64,000 bases of DNA from a bacterium (GTDB taxonomy: Bacteria; Patescibacteriota; Patescibacteriia; Patescibacteriales; UBA12465), in the NCBI GenBank assembly GCA_035400585.1, contig DAOMZR010000002.1, positions 15,364 to 79,363 of the forward strand. Reading direction: 5' to 3'. Positions within the stretch are counted from its first letter, which is position 1. Each line of letters starts with the position of its first letter. This document shows, piece after piece, positions 11,423 to 59,497 of this stretch. A model generated the notes under the pieces. That model worked only from the letters and a program-made list of their open reading frames with translations, was not told the origin of the DNA and ran no database searches. The position numbers and the translations under genes were made by a program.

Positions 11423-13762
11423 CTAGTTTAGTAACCAAATATTTCCTCCATTAATTAAAGAAAATAATCTCAAACCATCGCCCGAAGAAGCAATCGATAC
11501 CCACTTGTTGGTTGAAAAAAGAAAACTTTGTGTCCAGGTAACGCCCGAATCAGAAGAAATATAGACATAACCATCAATTCCATTATTAATTACAGCTGCT
11601 AACTTTGTCCCATCAGAAGAAGAGGTAATTGAAGTCCAATATCTTGATCCAGCAGATGTTTGAGCTGTCCAGGTTGCCCCTGAATCAGTTGAGGTATAAA
11701 TATAGTTACCACCAACCGCTGCGGCTAATTTTGTTCCATCAGAAGAAGAGGTAATTGAAGTCCAAGATCTTGATCCGGCAGATGTTCTTTCTGTCCAGGT
11801 CGCACCTGAATCAGATGAGGTATAAATATAGCCATTATTAGCTGCGGCTGCTAATTTGGTTCCGTCAGAAGAAGAGGCTACAGACATCCAATATTTAGTT
11901 GCGCCAGCAGGATTTCTTTGTGTCCAAGTAACACCTGAATCGGATGAAGTATAAATATAGTTACCACCAGTACCAGCAATCAATTTGACACCATCAGCTG
12001 ACGAAGCTAGCGAATACCAATAAACAGAATTTCCGGCAGGATCTCTTTGGGTCCAGGTAGTTCCAGAATCAGTTGAAGTATATACGTATCCATAGCCCTC
12101 ACCTATTATCAATTTTGAACCATTAGCAGAAGAAGCTAGAGCATACCAAGTTTTTGAATTATCAACTGGCATTCTTTCTGTCCAGGTTGAACCCGAGTTG
12201 GAAGAAATATAAACATATGGACCATTAACAATTGCAGCCACTTTAGTTCCATCGGTAGAAACTTTTATTTCCCTCCAACTTCTAGTTGATCCACTTGGAT
12301 TTATTTCTGTCCAAGTTGTGCCTGAATCAGTTGATTTATAAATAAAACCATTGCTGGCGACTGCTATTAAACTAGTGTTTCCTCCTAAAAAATAACCGGA
12401 ACGCCAATTTCTACTACTACCCCTAGATAACCAACTTGCACCACCATTAGTTGAAATATAAATATAATCGCCATAACATCCAGCCATCATACTATTACCA
12501 TCAGAAGAAATAGTTACAAACTCCCATTGATTAGTTCCTCCAGATGGATTTCTCTGAGTCCAAGTAGCACCAGAATCAATTGAAGTGTAAACATAGTTAC
12601 CACCGACCACAGCTGCCAATTTAGTTCCGTCAGAAGATGAAGCTACAGATAACCAATATCTACTAGATTCCCTTTGAGTCCAAGAAACACCAGAATTAGT
12701 TGAAGTATAAATATAACCATTTCCAACTACAGCAACCAATTTTGTGCCATCCGATGAAGAGGCGATAGCTCTCCAACCTCTAGAACCAGAACCAGTTTGG
12801 GCTGTCCAGGTTACACCTGAATCAGATGAAGTATAAATATAGCCACCATTAGCTGCAGCTGCTAATTTAGTGCCGTCAGCTGAAGAGGCGACCCCTTCCC
12901 AATATCTGGAACCAGCAGAGGTTCTTTCTGTCCAGGTTACACCTGAATCAGATGAAGTATAAATATAGCCACCAAACACAGAAACAATTAATTTCGTTCC
13001 ATCAACTGAAGATGCAACTTCTGAAAAACTTTTATTAAAAATTGCTGGGTTTCTTTCTACCCAAGTAACACCAGAATCAGACGAAGTATAAACATATCCA
13101 CCACTGACGCTAGCAATTATTTTTGTTCCATCTGATGAAGCGGCTACTGACCTCCAATCAGCAGGAGAAACTCCCCCAGGTATGTTTGGAGAAAAAACTC
13201 CCGACCATGAAGATGCTACACAAGTATCTTCTTCGCATTTATAACCAAGATCACAGGCAGGATCGCAAGCAGAAACCTCGCCTCCGCCCTCATCACCACC
13301 TCCTCCGGAAATCATACCACAAGAACTAGCCAAAATTCCTCCAGGAGTCAAACATTTAGCACCTTCATTTAAATCTGAAACTTGTTTGCCAGTACAAAAA
13401 GAAATTTCGTAACCAGCTCCTCCATTAGTTTGAATATATTGATAAGTATTAGAGGCCTCTAAACAATCTCCGTCAGCCGGTGTTGGAGCAATTGGAATGT
13501 TGTACATAAAAGTTTCTCCAGTAGAAGATGACACAATTGAACCGGAATTCCATTCGGCTTCGGTTGGATAACGATTGTTTTCGTTAAAAAATAATTCAAG
13601 AGCTGTTTGAAGTTGTTTCATATCAGAAACTCTTCTAGAATCTCTAGCATTTGTTCTGGCTTGTTGCAAAGCGATAACGGCTAAAGTCGCCAAAATGCCA
13701 ACAATGGCAATAACTACTAAAAGCTCTATTAAAGTAAAAGCTGTTTTTTTAGATTTAAACAT
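11423..13762 (-). CDS. Modular pilin: type IV pilin-like N-terminal module fused to ~14 BNR/Asp-box beta-propeller blades
   Basis: MFKSKKTA|[28 protein letters not shown] (class III signal, Ala at -1). Pilin head ends ..CLTPGGI, then linker GGGGDEGGGE and Cys-rich connector. Then ~14 repeats W..VASS.DGTKL.A...GGYIYTSSDSG.TWT (S-x-D-x-G-x-T-W Asp-box). Confidence 0.85.
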   Translation of the reverse strand: MFKSKKTAFTLIELLVVIAIVGILATLAVIALQQARTNARDSRRVSDMKQLQTALELFFNENNRYPTEAEWNSGSIVSSSTGETFMYNIPIAPTPADGDCLEASNTYQYIQTNGGAGYEISFCTGKQVSDLNEGAKCLTPGGILASSCGMISGGGGDEGGGEVSACDPACDLGYKCEEDTCVASSWSGVFSPNIPGGVSPADWRSVAASSDGTKIIASVSGGYVYTSSDSGVTWVERNPAIFNKSFSEVASSVDGTKLIVSVFGGYIYTSSDSGVTWTERTSAGSRYWEGVASSADGTKLAAAANGGYIYTSSDSGVTWTAQTGSGSRGWRAIASSSDGTKLVAVVGNGYIYTSTNSGVSWTQRESSRYWLSVASSSDGTKLAAVVGGNYVYTSIDSGATWTQRNPSGGTNQWEFVTISSDGNSMMAGCYGDYIYISTNGGASWLSRGSSRNWRSGYFLGGNTSLIAVASNGFIYKSTDSGTTWTEINPSGSTRSWREIKVSTDGTKVAAIVNGPYVYISSNSGSTWTERMPVDNSKTWYALASSANGSKLIIGEGYGYVYTSTDSGTTWTQRDPAGNSVYWYSLASSADGVKLIAGTGGNYIYTSSDSGVTWTQRNPAGATKYWMSVASSSDGTKLAAAANNGYIYTSSDSGATWTERTSAGSRSWTSITSSSDGTKLAAAVGGNYIYTSTDSGATWTAQTSAGSRYWTSITSSSDGTKLAAVINNGIDGYVYISSDSGVTWTQSFLFSTNKWVSIASSGDGLRLFSLINGGNIWLLN
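11426..13156 (-). repeat. In-frame tandem coding repeats (~126-135 bp unit, ~14 copies) encoding BNR blades
   Basis: Recurring YIYTSSDSGVTWT/ASSSDGTKLAA peptide units. Repeats are diverged at DNA level. Confidence 0.8.
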
Positions 13763-18172: not shown

Positions 18173-19234
18173 TTAAACATTAAACAATTTTAACAAAGAT
18201 TTAGCAAAAATAAAATAGATATTTAAGAAAAAATTAGCCAGAGATAATAGTGGACTAGAAATTTCTTGATACCATATTTTGCCAGACAACATTTTAATTA
18301 TTTTATAATCTTTTACTTTTCTTAAATGCTTTATTTTTTTTCTTTCTAAAAATATTTTTTTCCAAAAAGAAAATTTAAAGAACAAAAACCAAACACGAAT
18401 TTTCTCTTTAACCCAGCCATTTTTAAAAGAAAAATAAAAAAGACCTAATTCCATAATCACAAAAGCTGGTAAAAAAACTAATAAAGTAATTATTTTATAG
18501 TTTTTTAAAGCTGTTATAATTCGATTTTTGTCCATGAAATAGTATTTAGAAATAGAACGTGAAAATTCGTATTTATGATAAACTACTGAGTTTTTAGCTA
18601 AAACACACTTATAACCGGCAAGCCAAACACGCCAACCCAAATCTTGATCTTCGTTATACATAAAATAATCTTCATCAAATAAACCAATCTTTTTTAATAC
18701 TTCGCTTTTAAAAAGAACAGCTGCTCCTGATGGATAAAAAATATCAACACCGTCTTTGGTTATTTCTGGATTATAATTTTCATTATAACCACGACAAAAA
18801 CCAAATCCTAAAAAATGAGTATCATTTCCCAGGCTATTTATTTTTTCTTTATTTGGCCAAAGCATCAAACGAGATTGAACAACACCTATCCACTCATTAC
18901 TTTTTGCCATTTTAACCATTTCAGTAATAGTGTTTTTTTCAGAAATAGTATCCATGTTTAACAGCAGAACATAGTCAAAACCCTCGTTTAAAGCTAATTT
19001 TATGGCATCGTTATTTCCTTTGGCAAAACCATCATTGTTTTTGTTTTTAATTATTTCTGCTTCTGGAACACTTATTTTTAAATATTCAAAAGATTCTTCA
19101 GAAGTTTCATTATCAACTATATATAATTTGATTTCACCAGAAAAATCTTGATTTCTAATACTACTCAAACAATCGCTCAAATACTTTTTGGCGTAATCTT
19201 TATAGTTTATTAAAATAATAGCAACTTTATTCAT
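18173..19234 (-). CDS. Family 2 glycosyltransferase with C-terminal TM segments
   Basis: VAIILINYKD, VDNETSE, FMYNEDQDLGWR; hydrophobic C-terminal third. Confidence 0.85.
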   Translation of the reverse strand: MNKVAIILINYKDYAKKYLSDCLSSIRNQDFSGEIKLYIVDNETSEESFEYLKISVPEAEIIKNKNNDGFAKGNNDAIKLALNEGFDYVLLLNMDTISEKNTITEMVKMAKSNEWIGVVQSRLMLWPNKEKINSLGNDTHFLGFGFCRGYNENYNPEITKDGVDIFYPSGAAVLFKSEVLKKIGLFDEDYFMYNEDQDLGWRVWLAGYKCVLAKNSVVYHKYEFSRSISKYYFMDKNRIITALKNYKIITLLVFLPAFVIMELGLFYFSFKNGWVKEKIRVWFLFFKFSFWKKIFLERKKIKHLRKVKDYKIIKMLSGKIWYQEISSPLLSLANFFLNIYFIFAKSLLKLFNV

Positions 19235-19268
19235 ATTAAAATTATAGCATTTTTTTAGAAAAATAAAA

Positions 19269-19296
19269 AAAGCACCTAAATATAATGGTGCTTTTT
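19269..19296. terminator. Hairpin terminator downstream of the pilin-DUF1566 gene
   Basis: aaagcacc-taaatataat-ggtgcttt with T-runs on both strands. Confidence 0.6.
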
Positions 19297-19309: not shown

Positions 19310-20299
19310 TTATTCAGGAAACTCATCTCCACCACCCCCACTAAAACCTCCTTCTATAATAACAGATCTTACTGCCCTAACATTTTTGCTAATAGATTTA
19401 GAACTTATAGAAGGTGTTGGTAATTCACGTGCTTTTGCTTCCTTTACAAACAAAAAATTTTTAGCATAATATTCAATGCGAATATTTTCAGCTTCCAAGC
19501 TATTAGTTTCTGTGGAAGACCAATAATCAATAGTATTATAAAATCTAATATAAGACAAAAACATTCCAAGCTCATCAGAGGATGGTAAATACCAATCACT
19601 ATAACCACCACCTCGATGATTGCTGGCAATTTCAGCTGCTCCACCAGAACCACAGTTAGATAAAATAAGTTCAGTGTTTGCTTTTCCATTAGATACACTC
19701 GTAGCTCCAGCAAAAATGTTTTCACATCCCCAAGATAAAGAACCCTGATCTTCTTCAGCTGCAATTAAAACTTGAACATGACTATCATCTACAATGAGCA
19801 CACCAGAAATAATTCCACCTCCACAAAAAGTGCCAGGACCACTAAGAACATCGTCAAAAGTGCACTCCGGATCTAAAACAACATCAACCCCACCACCAGA
19901 ACCACCAGCAACAATTCCTCCTGGAGTTAATTGTTTTACTCCGGCCGGAATATCAGAAACTTGTTTGCCAGTACAAAAATCAACAACATAACTATCACCA
20001 TTCACAGAAGGAACATAGGAGTAAGTATTAGAAGCTTCTGAGCAACCACCATCAGCTGGGGTAGGAGCCGAAGGTATTGAGTGCATAAAAACTTCTCCCG
20101 TAGAAGAAGAAATAATTTGACCAGAATTCCATTCCTCTTCCGTGGGATACCTACCATTTTCATTAAAAAATAATTCCATAGCTGTTTGAACTTGTTTCAT
20201 GTCGGCCATTCTCTTGGAATCTCTAGCATTTTGTCTGGCCTGTTGCAAAGCCACCACAGCAAGAGTTGCCAAAACTCCAATAATAGCTATCACCACCAA
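19310..20299 (-). CDS. Modular pilin: pilin-like module + DUF1566-like C-terminal domain; 5' end disrupted (canonical ATG at 20337 is out of frame)
   Basis: In-frame text ..YENKKKG|[28 protein letters not shown] extends upstream of the track's TTG start to ~20341, with no ATG/GTG/TTG in frame there. Head ends QLTPGGI, linker GGSGGGVD. C-terminal GGYSDWYLPSSDELGMF..DYWSSTE..VRAVRSV matches the DUF1566 pattern as I recall it. Confidence 0.7.
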   Translation of the reverse strand: MVVIAIIGVLATLAVVALQQARQNARDSKRMADMKQVQTAMELFFNENGRYPTEEEWNSGQIISSSTGEVFMHSIPSAPTPADGGCSEASNTYSYVPSVNGDSYVVDFCTGKQVSDIPAGVKQLTPGGIVAGGSGGGVDVVLDPECTFDDVLSGPGTFCGGGIISGVLIVDDSHVQVLIAAEEDQGSLSWGCENIFAGATSVSNGKANTELILSNCGSGGAAEIASNHRGGGYSDWYLPSSDELGMFLSYIRFYNTIDYWSSTETNSLEAENIRIEYYAKNFLFVKEAKARELPTPSISSKSISKNVRAVRSVIIEGGFSGGGGDEFPE

Positions 20300-20370
20300 A
20301 AGCTCAATAAGAGTAAAACCTTTTTTCTTGTTTTCATAAATTCTTATTTTTACTAATAATTTTTTTGCTA

Positions 20371-20399
20371 ATTATAATACACTTTTTAAAAAAACTCAA
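20371..20399 (-). promoter_or_regulatory. Candidate promoter for the pilin-DUF1566 gene
   Basis: Minus-strand TTGAGT (20399-20394) - 17 nt - TATAAT (20376-20371), ~35 nt upstream of the ATG at 20337. Confidence 0.4.
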
Positions 20400-20422
20400 T
20401 TGATACAACAGAAAAATTGAGT
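20387..20422 (-). terminator. Terminator of the GT2 gene 20442-21299
   Basis: Minus strand: actcaatt-13 nt loop-aattgagt followed by TTTTTTT. Confidence 0.55.
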
Positions 20423-20441
20423 GATTGAATAATATTAAACT

Positions 20442-21299
20442 TTATTTTCTATCTCTAGAAAAAAGTAAAGTAAAAAACATTCCGATTAACCAAAATATTT
20501 TCAATAAAAAATACTGCCATCTTGGTTGCCATTTTTTAAAATATTTTAACATTGAATCTCTAAAAAGTTTTTGGGCTTTTTTTCTTTTCAATAAAGAAAA
20601 ACTTTGCCCAACATAGTCCAAACATTCAGCCTGAGAATTGTACCAAACCTCCCCTCCTAATTGATAAATTTGTTTACAAAAATCGACCTCTTCAAACCAA
20701 ACAAAATATCTTTCATCCAGCAAAGGAAGATCTTGTCCGTTCAATTCTTTAAATTTATTTTTATTAATCACAAAAAAAGAACCACGCACCGAGTCAACTT
20801 TCTGGCTTTGATCATAATTAAAATTAGATACCAAATACTTATCCAAAATTTTTGGAAAAACGTGAGGAATCTTTAAAATTATCATTAATTGATCAAAAAA
20901 CTTTGGAAAACGACGAACATGTCTAATGATGTTATTTTTTTCATCTACTAATTTACAACTAGACACAATGGCCTGAGAATTATTTTTGGCAAAATTTAAA
21001 GATTTTTCCAGAGTCTCAGCAAAGACTTGCATATCAGGGTTTAAAAGCAAAATAAAATCACCTCGAGATTGTTTAATGGCAATATTGTTTGCTCTAGAAA
21101 AGCCTAAGTTGTCTTCATTTTTAATTAATTTAACTTGAGGAAAATTCTTTTCCACCATTTCGGCTGAACCATCTTGAGAATTGTTATCAACTACAAAAAC
21201 TTCAAAAGAAAAATTACCCCGTGATTTAAACAGAGCTTGTAAATTATTATTTAATTTTTCCTTAACATTATAAGAAACTATAATTATTGATAAATCCAT
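20442..21299 (-). CDS. Family 2 glycosyltransferase
   Basis: LSIIIVSYNV, VDNNSQDGS, NLGFSRANN, FVWFEEVDFC. Confidence 0.85.
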   Translation of the reverse strand: MDLSIIIVSYNVKEKLNNNLQALFKSRGNFSFEVFVVDNNSQDGSAEMVEKNFPQVKLIKNEDNLGFSRANNIAIKQSRGDFILLLNPDMQVFAETLEKSLNFAKNNSQAIVSSCKLVDEKNNIIRHVRRFPKFFDQLMIILKIPHVFPKILDKYLVSNFNYDQSQKVDSVRGSFFVINKNKFKELNGQDLPLLDERYFVWFEEVDFCKQIYQLGGEVWYNSQAECLDYVGQSFSLLKRKKAQKLFRDSMLKYFKKWQPRWQYFLLKIFWLIGMFFTLLFSRDRK

Positions 21300-40031: not shown

Positions 40032-40478
40032 CTAGTCAACGTGAACAATTCCGCCAGGAGTTGCTTGTTTATAACCAGCTTTTAGACCACCAGTTTGATC
40101 ACCCAAACAGAAATCAATTCTGTAAGAAGCATAACCAGCACCAGCAGTTACACCTTGTGGGATGTAAGTGTAAGTGTTAGAAGCTGAAGTACAGATACCA
40201 TCAGCTGGAGTTGGAGCAGTTGGAACGATGTTCATGTAAGTAACACCATTTGAAGCGATTGTGTCGCCAGCTGTTACTGCATCTGGATAGTATTGATTGT
40301 CATTGAAGTACAATTCCAAAGCTGTTTGCATTTGGCGTACGTCAGCAATTCTTTTAGCATCTCTAGCATTCTTTCTAGCTTGTTGTAAAGCAACAACAGC
40401 TAAAGTTGCCAAGATACCAATGATGGCAATAACCACCAACAACTCGATCAAGGTAAAACCTTTTCTCTTTGTGTTCAT
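40032..40478 (-). CDS. Type IV pilin-like protein, 148 aa (probable major pilin/pseudopilin)
   Basis: MNTKRKG|[36 protein letters not shown]. Cys pair DGICTS..IDFCLG. Ends right after the shared ..ATPGGI block. Codon usage shifted to ttg/atc/ggt/gct. Own terminator. Confidence 0.9.
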   Translation of the reverse strand: MNTKRKGFTLIELLVVIAIIGILATLAVVALQQARKNARDAKRIADVRQMQTALELYFNDNQYYPDAVTAGDTIASNGVTYMNIVPTAPTPADGICTSASNTYTYIPQGVTAGAGYASYRIDFCLGDQTGGLKAGYKQATPGGIVHVD

Positions 40479-40631: not shown

Positions 40632-41204
40632 CTAGTCTCTTTCTCCGACTACATCCTTTAAAGCTTTAATTGCTCGATGCAATAAAACCCTAACATTCAT
40701 TTTTTTCTTTCCAGTAATTTCAGCAATCTCATCTAAACTTAATTCGTTAACATATCTCATAATAACTATTTCGCGATATTCATTTTTAATTTCCATCATT
40801 TTTTTAGACAGTATTTCATAATCAATTTGGGTAGAAATTTCTGACTCAATATCTATATTTTCATCGGCTACATCTATTTTATTTTCTTCAACATCAAGAG
40901 AGATGCTTTCTTGTCGATTGCTTCTATAGTGATCAATAATTACATTTCTGGTTATTTTATAAAGCAAAGCTCTTAAAGTTTCCCTGTTAGATAAGGTGTT
41001 TTTTTGAATATGTTCCCAAGTTTTTAAGAAGGCTAGAGAAGACAAATCGTTAGCATCTTCCTTTTTCCCTGTTTTGAAAAATATAAAACGATAAATATCA
41101 TCGGCATTTTTATCATAAAGCTCTTCAAATGCTTGTTGATCTTTATTTTTAATTCTTTCCTTTAATTTTTTGTCTTTAAAATTTTCAATTATATTTAAAC
41201 TCAT
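40632..41204 (-). CDS. RNA polymerase sigma-70 family factor, ECF-like (regions 2 and 4 only)
   Basis: Region 2 IYRFIFFKTGKKEDANDLSSLAFLKTWEH. Region 4 EYREIVIMRYVNELSLDEIAEITGKKKMNVRVLLHRAIKALK. Confidence 0.85.
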   Translation of the reverse strand: MSLNIIENFKDKKLKERIKNKDQQAFEELYDKNADDIYRFIFFKTGKKEDANDLSSLAFLKTWEHIQKNTLSNRETLRALLYKITRNVIIDHYRSNRQESISLDVEENKIDVADENIDIESEISTQIDYEILSKKMMEIKNEYREIVIMRYVNELSLDEIAEITGKKKMNVRVLLHRAIKALKDVVGERD

Positions 41205-52351: not shown

Positions 52352-54781
52352 TTAATTTTTTATACAACGTACAGAATTGCCCTGATCATAGGGAGCACTA
52401 AAACGTTCGGAGCCACTATTCCAATAAGTAATTCTACGGCCCCAAAGACTATTCGAATATATTTCAGTAGAAGACCAAGCACGGAAATAATCATTCAAAT
52501 CAGCAACTCTTTCTCCCTCATAATAAGAATTCCAAAAACCACCAGGAACAATATTTAGGCCACTTTCACCAAAAACAGAATTATTTCTCAAGACTCCATC
52601 AGTCCATATTTCATAATTGCCAGCCATAAAACTACCTTCGTTAGTCCCTCTTGCGCCATTAGTTGTTACGTCTTTGGGAAACTTAGTATCACAACTATCA
52701 TTACCCAAAATAGAGCAAATTGTCCTCTCCAAATCAGTAAAATCATCGTGAGAGGGAAGTCTCCATCCATCAGGACAGGCCGTTAAAGCAGCCACCCCAT
52801 TATATAGAACTCCATGATTTTGATAATTTAGAGAACTTTTAGCTTCTTCCGTATCAGTTCCGTTGTAATTATAAACAAAATATCTTGGCTCTGTATAACT
52901 AGAATTGCCCCCAGAAAGAGGACTTTCGCTTGAAGGATAAACAGTTGGAAGATATTTTAAATTTTCGGACATCCAAACTTGATCACCAATACCGGTCCAA
53001 GAATATTCTTCACCATCTCTTGAATCAATAAATGTCCCAGAAGTTGAACAATTATAATCATACAAAACAGGGTCACCACCAAAACAATTTGATGGATAAG
53101 AATTTATAACAGTTCTTGTTTTTTTCCCATAAAAACATTCGCTCCAATCAGAATAATCAAATGAAGTACAAATTGCTTGTTCGGGTATTAATCTTCTAAT
53201 AACTAGTGCATTAGAACTATTATTGTCAGGCGATTGTTCTTCCATAAACATTAAATAGATAGTATCATTATCAATCAACATTGATATATTAGAAAAAGTT
53301 TCGCTATGAGAAGCAATCGGTCCTACACTTTCCCAAGAAGTCCCATTAAATTTTTTTACCTCCACTAAACCTGGATTAACAGCTGGATTAGTAGCAGAAA
53401 CATTGCTACCATTTTTATAAGCAACATAGGGAACTTCATTATAAATATAAAGAGCTAATTGAGAAGCATGACCAACCGAAAAAACTCCATCGTTTGGACC
53501 AAGTGGCACCCAGGATGTTCCATTAAATTTTAAAGCAACGCCTCTTTCACCAACGCCTTCACTTGCAATATCTTTACCTCCCTGATAAACAACATACAAA
53601 TCACCATTATTACTTATTTGAAAATCAGCATGACCAGAGCTCTCAGTATGAAGTATTTCTATTGGCTCACCAACCCAGTTCCAACTAGTTCCATCAAATT
53701 TTTTAATCACCCACTTTGGAGCGCCAGAATCACAATCTCTTCTATACATAACATAAAGCTCTCCATTATGAATTCTAAGAATTGGTTTAGTTCCTTTTTG
53801 ACCATTAGAAACAGTTGGCCCAACCTGTTCCCAAGCTCCATTTACAAATTTAACGACATAAGTTTCTTCGGTTGAAGCTTCATCTTTATAAGCAACATAA
53901 GGTATATTATCGTACACGGTTAAAGACGGCTGACAAGCTATATCAAAAGAAGTATATTCGCCAATAGTTTCCCATGTATCATTTATAAATTTTTTTGTTA
54001 TAATCATGTCTGATCCATTTTTATCCTTGTAAGAAATATATGGCACGCCATTAAAAATTTGCATCGATGATTTACCATTAGAATTGTCAGGACCATCTAT
54101 TCTCTCCCCTAGTGGTGTTGCTGTCGATTCGTTAACTTTAGCCATTTTTAAATAATAACTCTCTGAGGCATCTCGATAAGAAGCATATAGTTCATTACTG
54201 TAAATACCTAAACTAGAGCTACACCCCCAATCAGATAAAACAGGACTTCCGTAGGTTTGCCAAACACATCCTGAAGAATCAGCCAAACAATTATTTTCAA
54301 TATTGCCTCCGTCATCGTCACCACCACCCTCAATTCCACAATCTTGATTTAATATTCCACCGGGAGTTAAACATTTTGGACCAGATTCTAAATTGTTAGA
54401 ATCTTTTCCCAAACAAAAAGACAAAAGATAAGTACGATTATTATTTTGAGGTTCATAAAAATATGAATTTTGTTCACCACTACAATCACCATCGGCCACC
54501 ATCGGAGCTTCTGGAATTTTTTCCATAAACACGTCAGAAACGCCAGCAATTTTGCCGGTATTCCACTCTTCTTCGGTTGGATAGCGATTATGTTCATTAA
54601 AAAAGATCTCTAGAGCGGTTTGTAATTGTTTCATGTCGGCCACTCTTTTAGAATCTCTAGCACTAACTCTGGCTTGTTGCAAAGCAACAACAGCTAAAGT
54701 TGCCAATAAACCAATTATAGCTATTACTACTAACAACTCTACCAAGGTAAAGCCTTTTTTCTTTTTTAATCTTTTAAACAT
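52352..54781 (-). CDS. Modular pilin: pilin-like module + 7 divergent propeller repeats + C-terminal Fibrobacter-type (FISUMP/Fib_succ_major-like) domain
   Basis: [10 protein letters not shown]|[28 protein letters not shown]. Head ends CLTPGGI, linker [10 protein letters not shown]. Repeats ..PYISYKD/PYVAYKD/LYVMYRR..KF.GTSW. Last 226 aa [44 protein letters not shown] fits the FISUMP pattern (from memory). Confidence 0.85.
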
Positions 54782-57964: not shown

Positions 57965-59497
57965 TTAAGGAGTAACGTCAAATTTCATAACTGAAGCTTT
58001 ACCAGAAATGCCAAAATCTTCATAACCAACATAAGCGATATCATTATCTATCTGTAAAGAAATATCAGTAGCCATAGCACCAGAAAAGCCAACATTTCCA
58101 ACTAATTCCCAAGAAGAACCATTATACTTCATAACCGAAACAGCACTAGAGTTGTCACCATCAGGATAAGCAACCAAAGGTGTTCCATTATAAAACTTAA
58201 GAGAAATAACATCGTTTACATCGCCAGTAAAACCAGCGGTTCCAACTAATTCCCAAGATGAACCATTATATTTCATGGAAGTCAAACCAGCGACTGTATA
58301 GTCTCTATAGACGACATAAGGTGTTCCATTATATATTTGCAAAGAAATAGTATCTATTTGACCGGTTGAAAAACCAAGCGGTCCAACCAATTCCCAAGAT
58401 GAACCGTTGTATTTCATAACAGTGGCTGCACCACCATCACTAAAATCCATATAGGCCACATAAGGCGTTCCGCCATATACATAAAGAGATATATAACCAG
58501 CCATTCCAGCTGAAAAACCAGCAGTTCCAACCAATTCCCAGGCTGAACCGTTATATCTCATAACAGTAGCTTTACTAGAGTTAGCCCCGTCTTGGTAAGC
58601 AACATAAAGAGTGCCATTATACATAAAAGAATTAATATAATTAACAGCACCAGCAGAGAAACCAGCAGTTCCAACTAGTTCCCAGGCTGAACCGTTATAT
58701 CTCATAACGGTAGCTTTGTTGGAATTGCCACCGTCTCTGTAGGCCACATACGGAGTTCCATTATAAATCTGCAATGTTGTCCAATCAACAGCACCAGCAG
58801 AGAAACCAGCGGTTCCAACTAATTCCCAAGAAGATCCATTATATCTCATAACAGTGGCTTTGTTAGAATTAGCTCCGTCTCTGTAAGCTAAATATGGAGT
58901 ATTGTTATAAATTTGCAAAGAAGTCCAATCAGCTGTTCCTGGTGTAAAACCGGCAGTTCCAACTAAACCCCAAGAACAACCAGTAGGATTAACCAGACAA
59001 CCCTCTGGCTCTGGTGTACCACCGCCTGAACCACTAGCAATTATTATCCCTCCCGGTGTTAATTGTTTTACTCCATCTGGTAAGTCGGACACTTGTTTGC
59101 CAGTACAGAAATCGATAGTATAACTAGCTCCATTATCTCTAGGAGTATAAACATAAGTGTTAGAAGCCTCCAAACAAGCTCCATCGGCTGGATAGGGAGC
59201 AGAAGGAATTTCTTGCATAAAAAGAATTCCCTCAGTTGAAGAACCAATGAAGCCTTCATTCCACTCTTCTTCTGTGGGATATCTACCATACTGATTGGCA
59301 AACAATTCTAGAGCTGTTTGCATTTGTTTTATATCAGCTACTCTTTTACTGTCCCTGGCATTCTGTCTAGCTTGTTGTAAAGCTACTATAGCCAAGGTTG
59401 CCAATATACCAATGATGGCAATAACCACCAAAAGCTCAACCAAGGTAAATCCTTTTTTATGGTTTTTAAAAAAAGGGGAATTTTTTTTTCTTAACAT
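57965..59497 (-). CDS. Modular pilin: pilin-like module + seven 48-aa repeats (predicted 7-blade propeller)
   Basis: MLRKKNSPFFKNHKKG|[28 protein letters not shown]. Head ends QLTPGGI, linker SGSGGGTPEPEG. 7x (SWELVGTAGFSAGAVDWTTLQIYNGTPYVAYRDGGNSNKATVMRYNGS). Alternative upstream ATG at 59524. Confidence 0.85.
   Translation of the reverse strand: MLRKKNSPFFKNHKKGFTLVELLVVIAIIGILATLAIVALQQARQNARDSKRVADIKQMQTALELFANQYGRYPTEEEWNEGFIGSSTEGILFMQEIPSAPYPADGACLEASNTYVYTPRDNGASYTIDFCTGKQVSDLPDGVKQLTPGGIIIASGSGGGTPEPEGCLVNPTGCSWGLVGTAGFTPGTADWTSLQIYNNTPYLAYRDGANSNKATVMRYNGSSWELVGTAGFSAGAVDWTTLQIYNGTPYVAYRDGGNSNKATVMRYNGSAWELVGTAGFSAGAVNYINSFMYNGTLYVAYQDGANSSKATVMRYNGSAWELVGTAGFSAGMAGYISLYVYGGTPYVAYMDFSDGGAATVMKYNGSSWELVGPLGFSTGQIDTISLQIYNGTPYVVYRDYTVAGLTSMKYNGSSWELVGTAGFTGDVNDVISLKFYNGTPLVAYPDGDNSSAVSVMKYNGSSWELVGNVGFSGAMATDISLQIDNDIAYVGYEDFGISGKASVMKFDVTP
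57968..58978 (-). repeat. Seven in-frame tandem 144-bp coding repeats
   Basis: Recurring DNA blocks such as gttccaac(t/c)a(a/g)ttcccaag/ggc..gaaccgttatatctcataac. By eye the units are similar but not identical. Confidence 0.85.

Follow-up and report, generated by a model that had tools for sequence, protein, structure and literature searches.

A one-base frameshift in the leader of a putative type IV pilin-adhesin gene from a Patescibacteria genome, probably a recent strain-level allele

Introduction

Ribosomal frameshifting of the dnaX, IS911 and IS3 type moves translation into the -1 frame at slippery heptamers that are located at domain junctions, conserved among orthologues and accompanied by a stem-loop or pseudoknot or by a Shine-Dalgarno (SD)-like stimulator. 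Slippage can also compensate for mutation. One-base deletions near the start codon of pDEST17 attB1 constructs were rescued to 25-60% in E. coli by -1 slippage on C-AAA-AAA (Belfield et al. 2007, PMC1851650), and both 'savior indels' with low-level compensatory frameshifting and interrupted pilus genes are recognised in the recoding literature (Atkins et al. 2016, PMC5009743). In Neisseria, the poly-G tract of the pilus adhesin genes pilC1 and pilC2 is G9-20 in length, is found in the region encoding the signal peptide and varies between and within strains (Jonsson et al. 1991, as cited in PMC5953494). Here we describe a gene on the minus strand of a 64-kb stretch of Patescibacteria DNA (64,000 nucleotides of contig DAOMZR010000002.1; 31% GC), referred to below as the window, in which the only ATG is one base out of frame with a predicted type IV pilin carrying a C-terminal lectin-like domain.

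The junction between the two frames has the same heptamer as the dnaX, IS911 and IS3-type sites, in the right frame and with a meaningful -1 product, whereas no stem-loop or pseudoknot, SD-like stimulator or orthologue conservation was found and the site, instead of separating two domains, falls only 5 codons into the gene. As in pDEST17 attB1 and the savior indels, a -1-compensable deletion follows a near-start A-run encoding lysine; rescue in those cases was measured in E. coli or a herpesvirus, whereas slippage at the present locus is a prediction from sequence. The likeness to pilC is that a frameshift of one base, in the 5′ part of a pilus adhesin gene that encodes the leader, switches the gene off there and would do so here; the long, variable poly-G of pilC contrasts with the A6 and G2 tracts found here, where the A-run is constant and the frame difference belongs to a linked recombination patch. 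The C-terminal domain is predicted to have a fold like that of Legionella pneumophila Lcl (PDB 8q4e, PMC11162425; Pfam PF07603), although Lcl carries a collagen-like stalk whereas the present domain is joined to a type IV pilin module. Type IV pili have been proposed to attach Patescibacteria/Saccharibacteria to their hosts (PMC11623550), and this too is a Patescibacteria genome with several pilin paralogues; unlike those pili, the protein described here was assigned through sequence comparison and a structural model.

Reading frames at the 5′-end of the gene

A first-pass annotation, made from the letters of the window, had described a pilin-DUF1566 gene with its ATG out of frame across an A6 homopolymer and had offered a phase-variable switch, a fresh pseudogene, a non-ATG start or an assembly error as explanations. 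Direct reading of the minus strand bore out the frame conflict. The start region reads aaaataagaatttATGAAAACAAGAAAAAAGGTTTTACTCTTATTGAGCTTTTGGTGGTGAtagc, and the series ATT TAT GAA AAC AAG AAA AAA GGT TTT ACT CTT ATT GAG is seen at the 5′-end of the gene, the first eight codons being exactly those that had been given in the annotation. The lone ATG (20337-20335) opens the frame ATG AAA ACA AGA AAA AAG GTT TTA CTC TTA TTG AGC TTT TGG TGG TGA, which translates as MKTRKKVLLLLSFWW and stops at the TGA between 20292 and 20290. The A6 run is located between 20326 and 20321, and the pilin frame, which continues from the GGT at 20320-20318 as G|FTLIELL, is -1 relative to the ATG. This frame is open between a TAA at 20374-20372 and a TAA at 19312-19310; no other lesion was found down to the latter, in agreement with the annotation. 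Upstream of the prepilin motif the pilin frame contained no ATG, GTG or TTG, just ATA (20347) and ATT (20341). The short, basic leader with an in-frame initiation codon that is typical of type IV prepilins was missing, and such a leader arises only through a -1 shift.

The frameshift allele and its in-frame counterparts

The cluster of proteins with at least 90% identity to the called protein had seven members, and DNA was fetched for five of them. P0126 was the single intact member, a prepilin of 342 aa (MKTRKKGFTLIELL); the others were truncated or ATT-started calls. Six loci (L002, L003, L004, L006, L007 and L008) matched the window at 100% identity over 1.4-2.1 kb, and the A6G2 junction (ATGAAAACAAGAAAAAAGGTTTT) was part of the match. 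These came from ENA ERZ27257411, Logan SRR6960509 and SRR5007313, and JGI 3300025866, 3300009688 and 3300019236. A seventh differently numbered sample, JGI 3300010355, provided L005, which had the same gene and the same junction from ATG to A6G2. Upstream of the gene, the intergenic region of L005 differed, its glycosyltransferase gene was ~8% diverged and the in-frame ATT was replaced by AAT; at only 1.85 kb, L005 may be a chimeric contig.

A sequencing or assembly error in the homopolymer would explain a one-base difference beside such a run, but it is almost certainly not the cause. Contigs with the identical sequence were assembled through different pipelines from seven or more metagenome samples with different numbers, and elsewhere in the window no gene was noticed to be broken.

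The DNA encoding P0126 (L001, SRR29782965) begins ATG AAA ACA AGA AAA AAG GGT TTT and is in frame, with A6 followed by GGG. It had been suggested that one more A would restore the leader; the natural in-frame allele instead has an extra G, and its A-run is still A6. When L001 was aligned with the window, six synonymous changes were concentrated in the 5′-most ~25 codons and one more change was seen in the other ~1 kb. The linkage of the G3 to these six changes suggests recombination rather than slippage, and the 5′ patch suggests recombination or gene conversion in the N-terminal segment that is common to all paralogues. The exact donor of the patch was not present among the paralogues in the window.

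A syntenic orthologue, L023 (P0002, SRR15734600), was also in frame, reading ATG AAA ACA AGA AAA AAG GCC TTC. Its DNA was 100% identical to the window over codons ~35-155. The 5′ ~100 nt had diverged by synonymous changes, the C-terminal lectin domain had ~70% identity and contained indels whose lengths were multiples of three, and the downstream glycosyltransferase gene was ~97% identical. The locus is therefore strongly mosaic, and this mosaic between strains suggests cassette-like recombination. Orthologues with 57-71% identity were in frame and began MKTRKKAFTL, MKTTKKAFTL or MNHKKKAFTL, and the distant orthologues P0003, P0004 and P0007 and the loci L009 and L010 were in frame as well. 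When 34 distinct pilin 5′-ends from the window and the fetched loci were compared, 31 had an in-frame ATG and no other showed the present frameshift arrangement. Scans of metagenomes and genomes revealed no further copies of the allele; all relatives found had at most 81% identity apart from L048, a partial N-terminal match of 76 residues at 91%.

DUF1566 is a known target domain of diversity-generating retroelements, and such an element was considered. No template/variable repeat pair involving the 3′-end of the gene was found in the window, where every repeat detected belonged either to the pilin domains of paralogues or to tandem repeats within other genes. The divergence of L023 extends over ~550 nt, contains indels and has no adenine-specific pattern, and this candidate was rejected.

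On balance, we consider that the window carries a recent strain-level one-base frameshift allele of a redundant accessory type IV pilin-lectin adhesin gene. The gene is disrupted relative to intact orthologues and to an intact conspecific allele, and among the options offered by the first-pass annotation the fresh pseudogene, or null allele, is the best supported. The comparison with related genomes that it had recommended did reveal a disruption, the relatives being in frame; the accumulation of downstream lesions that it had named as the mark of a plain pseudogene was not seen. The lesion appears to be recent because the rest of the gene is undamaged and the intact allele is in circulation.

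Relative to the intact allele, the mutation would be a one-base deletion, GGG to GG, directly after AGA AAA AAG. Translation from the single AUG would end after a peptide of 15 residues. The prepilin would then be unmade, or small amounts of it would arise when ribosomes happen to slip by -1 on A_AAA_AAG or, rarely, initiate at AUU. Expression of the adhesin would be lost or strongly reduced. The deletion allele may have become fixed in a widely sampled clone while the intact allele still circulates, as would be expected from ordinary mutational and recombinational turnover of redundant modular pilin-adhesin paralogues rather than from a repeat-driven reversible switch.

Several observations weigh against this reading. 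The gene is otherwise perfectly intact, with promoter and terminator in place, and because all frameshifted copies are 100% identical within the gene, neither decay nor purifying selection (dN/dS) is demonstrable. The presence of the A6G2 gene under two upstream types (L002 and L005) may mean that the allele has persisted and spread, or that L005 is a chimera. Some of the Logan and JGI assemblies may stem from shared raw reads; even with such sharing, several independent data sets and assemblers agree on A6G2. Finally, the deletion lies directly 3′ of the most efficient bacterial -1 heptamer, and the allele may remain substantially expressed.

Frameshift alleles of surface-protein genes are commonplace, and the present case adds one from a lineage that has received little study. 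A role in binding to host cells has been proposed for the pilin-adhesin repertoire of Patescibacteria. The locus illustrates how this modular repertoire may differ between strains in ON/OFF state and by recombinational mosaicism.

Other lesions at the 5′-ends of pilin genes were rare and heterogeneous, and the present lesion fits this pattern. In L011 (JALNZW010000005.1, Patescibacteria bin 120), a gene of the pilin-DUF1566 type, either an orthologue or a paralogue, had its start ATG changed to ACG between 3001 bp and 3030 bp (ACGTTCAAACCAAAACAAAAAGCC, against ATGTTCAAACAAAAACAAAAAGCT in relatives) and was called from an internal Met (P0050). In L049 (Logan SRR29761466, between 1355 bp and 1510 bp), which is orthologous to 54630-54781 on the minus strand of the window, the loss of one base near codon 36, where there was no homopolymer, had divided the 809-aa pilin-FISUMP paralogue in two (CAACAAGCCAGAGTT to CAACAG-CCAGGATT). 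The products were a 46-aa N_methyl fragment and a remainder of 760 aa (P0129).

A slippery heptamer at the frame junction

The first-pass annotation had overlooked that the junction in the ATG frame, A_AAA_AAG, is a dnaX-type -1 slippery heptamer. The X_XXY_YYZ pattern is in the zero frame exactly at the junction, and a -1 slip on it leads to MKTRKKG|FTLIELL, that is, to MKTRKKGFTLIELL, the same protein as P0126. The deletion could on this basis be a 'savior indel', with translation starting at the AUG, tRNA-Lys(UUU) slipping at codons 5-6 and a functional allele of low expression as the result. We regard such compensatory frameshifting as possible but unlikely. The frame and position of the heptamer are exact, the -1 product is a textbook prepilin, a tRNA-Lys(UUU) gene is present in the window and A6G2 is by far the commonest assembled form. 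There is, moreover, the precedent of near-start one-base deletions rescued by slippage on an A-run (PMC1851650), and both savior indels and 'interrupted pili genes' are categories of the recoding literature (PMC5009743). However, the heptamer amounts to mere codons for R-K-K and is unchanged in L001 and L023; as these in-frame alleles also carry it, it has not been selected for the shift.

The surroundings of the heptamer likewise had none of the features of a recoding site. RNA folding of 53-99 nt downstream of or around it, in both alleles, gave nothing beyond shuffled controls (z scores of 0.34, -0.50 and 0.89), and an Rfam scan of 19900-20500 found nothing near threshold and no dnaX element. 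An SD-like stimulator was likewise missing. The arrangement was conserved in none of the orthologues (P0002, P0003, P0004 and P0007; L009, L010 and L023). In the 46 long open reading frames (ORFs) of the window, A_AAA_AAG occurred in frame 10 times and was not avoided, with 10/56 Lys-Lys pairs after NNA codons compared with 16/125 after other codons. The lack of depletion makes it less likely that the heptamer is by itself strongly prone to slippage in this organism. Because a tRNA-Glu(CUC) gene is also present, other parts of the genome may encode a tRNA-Lys(CUU), which would damp slippage.

A leaky, incidental rescue by -1 slippage is plausible from the heptamer itself, a selected recoding signal is not supported, and the slippery heptamer at the junction, neat as it is, is probably coincidental. 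More speculative, and somewhat less likely again than simple compensation, is a scenario in which a -1 slippery site is built into the Lys-rich leader (AGA AAA AAG) and the deletion sets a low, slippage-limited level of expression. The gene would then be a 'pseudo-pseudogene' encoding a pilus-tip adhesin, maintained and spread by recombination in an episymbiotic Patescibacteria population. If slippage does operate, the locus would be a natural case of compensatory -1 frameshifting near a start codon on a bacterial chromosome, of moderate interest to the recoding field.

An SD-like 4-mer was found upstream of 0/46 long ORFs in the window, compared with 10.5% of random positions. Several genes in the window had TATAAT only ~6 nt before the ATG, for example TATAAT at 19246-19241 and ATG at 19234 on the minus strand. 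Such spacing suggests that leaderless or very short-leader mRNAs are made from this genome.

Length of the A-run and phase variation

Reversible ON/OFF phase variation through slipped-strand mispairing in the A6 run, or in G2/G3, was the leading idea of the first-pass annotation. In-frame and out-of-frame alleles of a surface-protein gene do both occur, one base apart beside a homopolymer, and genes associated with pili, such as Neisseria pilC, are classic phase-variable loci. The alleles themselves make this very unlikely. Ten sequences were compared and each had the A6 run; what differs is G2 against G3, and the linkage of G3 to six synonymous substitutions is a signature of recombination. 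Both tracts are also below the cut-offs used for phase-variable tracts in PhasomeIt, which are at least 7 for poly-G/C and at least 10 for poly-A/T (PMC6321876).

Nor is the A6 run exceptional, although it had been singled out. Runs of at least six letters number 257 for A and 206 for T in the window, 463 in all or one per ~140 bp, which cannot all be hypermutable. A run of six is ordinary here because Lys-Lys is encoded as AAA AAA or AAA AAG; the codon AAA was counted 1405 times in the window and the codon AAG 261 times. Clusters of two paralogues, the major pilin (ten members, each of 148 aa) and the 809-aa protein, showed no length variation at their 5′ runs, and the variants in the cluster of the 809-aa paralogue were explained otherwise than by 5′ run length. 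With an invariant A6, short tracts and an in-frame allele that differs by an extra G, the proposed homopolymer switch was left without support.

Alternative start sites

The transcript is expected to start near 20364 and to have a ~27-nt A/T-rich leader without an SD motif. An in-frame AUU (20341) is within this predicted leader, and the first-pass annotation had raised the possibility that the gene is intact and starts there, with the leader MYENKKKG; the AUA at 20347 would be a further candidate. The frame is open upstream, a leader formed in this way still ends in KKKG, and the NCBI annotation P0121 begins at the ATT. Against this, ATG is used by all 31 intact relatives, and in the L005 variant the ATT has become AAT although the ATG and the frameshift are kept. 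A strong AUG only 4 nt downstream would compete, and there is no SD motif to place ribosomes on the AUU. Initiation at AUU in E. coli is ~1% or less of that at AUG. Taken together, a non-ATG start is quite improbable. N-terminal proteomics, which had been proposed as a check, cannot separate the start sites because the prepilin peptidase removes the leader.

Termination followed by reinitiation was also considered. The TGA that ends the short ORF (20292-20290) overlaps a pilin-frame GTG (20293-20291) as GTGA, and ribosomes could restart there or at a nearby GTG or TTG to make a truncated, uncleavable, membrane-anchored lectin. The gene-caller products P0001, P0122, P0123 and P0125 (327-329 aa) begin at these codons. 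A product of this kind has no leader, cleavage site or Glu5 and could for that reason not be a pilin. It would also have no N-terminal positive charges, with R/K located after the hydrophobic segment, and the positive-inside rule would favour the wrong topology. The paralogues frequently have GTG GTG at the same place for ordinary coding reasons, and reinitiation is highly unlikely to matter. A practical consequence of the allele is that gene callers mis-annotate it, either as a leaderless protein of 327-329 aa or as an ATT-started prepilin.

Domain architecture of the encoded protein

The leader-restored protein matched Pfam N_methyl (E=1.7e-9), and motif scan, profiles and model agreed on a type IV prepilin with G|F-T-L-I-E, Glu5 and a hydrophobic alpha-1 helix. 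The family profile matched solved pilins and pseudopilins through the N-terminal helix, as well as the sequence of 8q4e, the C-terminal domain of Legionella Lcl (E=5.3e-5). The DUF1566 label of the first-pass annotation fared less evenly. The protein's own match to Lcl_C/DUF1566 (PF07603) scored 19.5 bits (E=0.0012), below the gathering cut-off of 34.9; support for the domain comes instead from the relatives and from the fold. Among ten relatives, N_methyl was matched by 10/10 and Lcl_C by 9/10 (E<=0.01, best 1e-9).

An alignment-based AlphaFold (AF2) model (mean pLDDT 77.6) was used, and a single-sequence model with a pLDDT of only 40.7 was discarded. The helix was predicted to span residues 4-55. 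The top PDB match of the model in Foldseek was 8q4e_A, the Legionella Lcl C-terminal domain (E=1.9e-4, probability 1.00, target TM 0.67), followed by C-type-lectin folds and pseudopilins. By this model, the gene is predicted to encode a pilin of modular build, in which a lectin-like adhesin domain is fused to the pilin part. The database names of its relatives point to Patescibacteria, near Falkowbacteria.

Features and neighbourhood of the locus

The coordinates of the features are given in Table 1. The promoter noted in the first-pass annotation was found again as the best-scoring site of the region. The terminator that it had placed downstream is visible by eye as a hairpin but was not flagged by a terminator scan, because the loop of 10 nt exceeds 8 nt.

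Table 1. Positions of features at the frameshifted pilin gene within the 64-kb window
Feature	Position (bp)	Strand	Remarks
Promoter-like TTGAGT-17-TATAAT	20371..20399	-	10/12 positions match; best in region
In-frame ATT, start annotated by NCBI (MYENKKKG...)	20339..20341	-	AAT in the L005 upstream variant
Zero-frame short ORF (MKTRKKVLLLLSFWW, stop)	20290..20337	-	15 codons and TGA; ATG-initiated
A_AAA_AAG heptamer in the ATG frame, AG[A AAA AAG] GTT	20320..20326	-	Contains the A6 run
GG doublet	20319..20320	-	Position of the one-base difference; GGG in the in-frame conspecific L001
Pilin-frame coding sequence, Gly(-1) codon to TAA	19310..20320	-	336 codons, otherwise undamaged; 100% identical to P0126 from residue 7
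Prepilin cleavage/methylation motif	20258..20320	-	Pfam N_methyl E=1.7e-9; PDB pilin and pseudopilin matches
C-terminal Lcl_C (DUF1566), C-type-lectin-like, presumed adhesin module	19340..19873	-	Pfam matches of relatives and fold match
Terminator-like hairpin GCACC-N10-GGTGC, then T7	~19262..19291	-	Seen by eye

The frameshifted gene stands alone between three family-2 glycosyltransferase genes and an NTP-transferase gene (between 17385 bp and 21299 bp of the window). No pilus operon surrounds it, and L002 and L004 keep an identical synteny.

Pilin paralogues in the window

A six-frame motif scan revealed five pilin-type N-termini in the window; in the four besides the present gene, the motif is preceded by an in-frame ATG at a distance of 6-15 codons. 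Their Gly/Ala -1 codons are at 13741, 40460, 54754 and 59452, and the corresponding 5′ A-runs are A7, at most A4, A6-G-A6 and A9. The first-pass annotation had listed the same runs, including the putative major pilin with none longer than A4. The five paralogues have a pilin module of ~150 residues in common (repeat families D1 and D5), with differing C-terminal domains.

The 510-aa paralogue has the leader ATG TTA AGA AAA AAA AAT TCC CCT TTT TTT AAA (59452-59497, minus strand), which contains an in-frame A9 (59481-59489) and a T7. The A9 is the longest of the leader runs in the first-pass annotation and is below the poly-A/T cut-off of 10.

Internal tandem repeats are present in two large paralogues on the minus strand (11423-13762 and 57965-59497), one with a period of ~126 nt and at least 10 copies and the other with a period of ~144 nt and seven copies. 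The repeats are rich in YIYTSSDSG-TW or YNG-PYVAY motifs and are presumably beta-propeller or BNR-like.

No domains of the type IV pilus machinery were detected in ten ORFs near the putative major pilin (between 34 kb and 50 kb). This pilin (40032-40478, minus strand) is 148 aa long, a length shared by all ten members of its cluster. Directly upstream of it, on the same strand, is a gene for an ECF-type sigma factor (Sigma70_r2/r4; 40632-41204).

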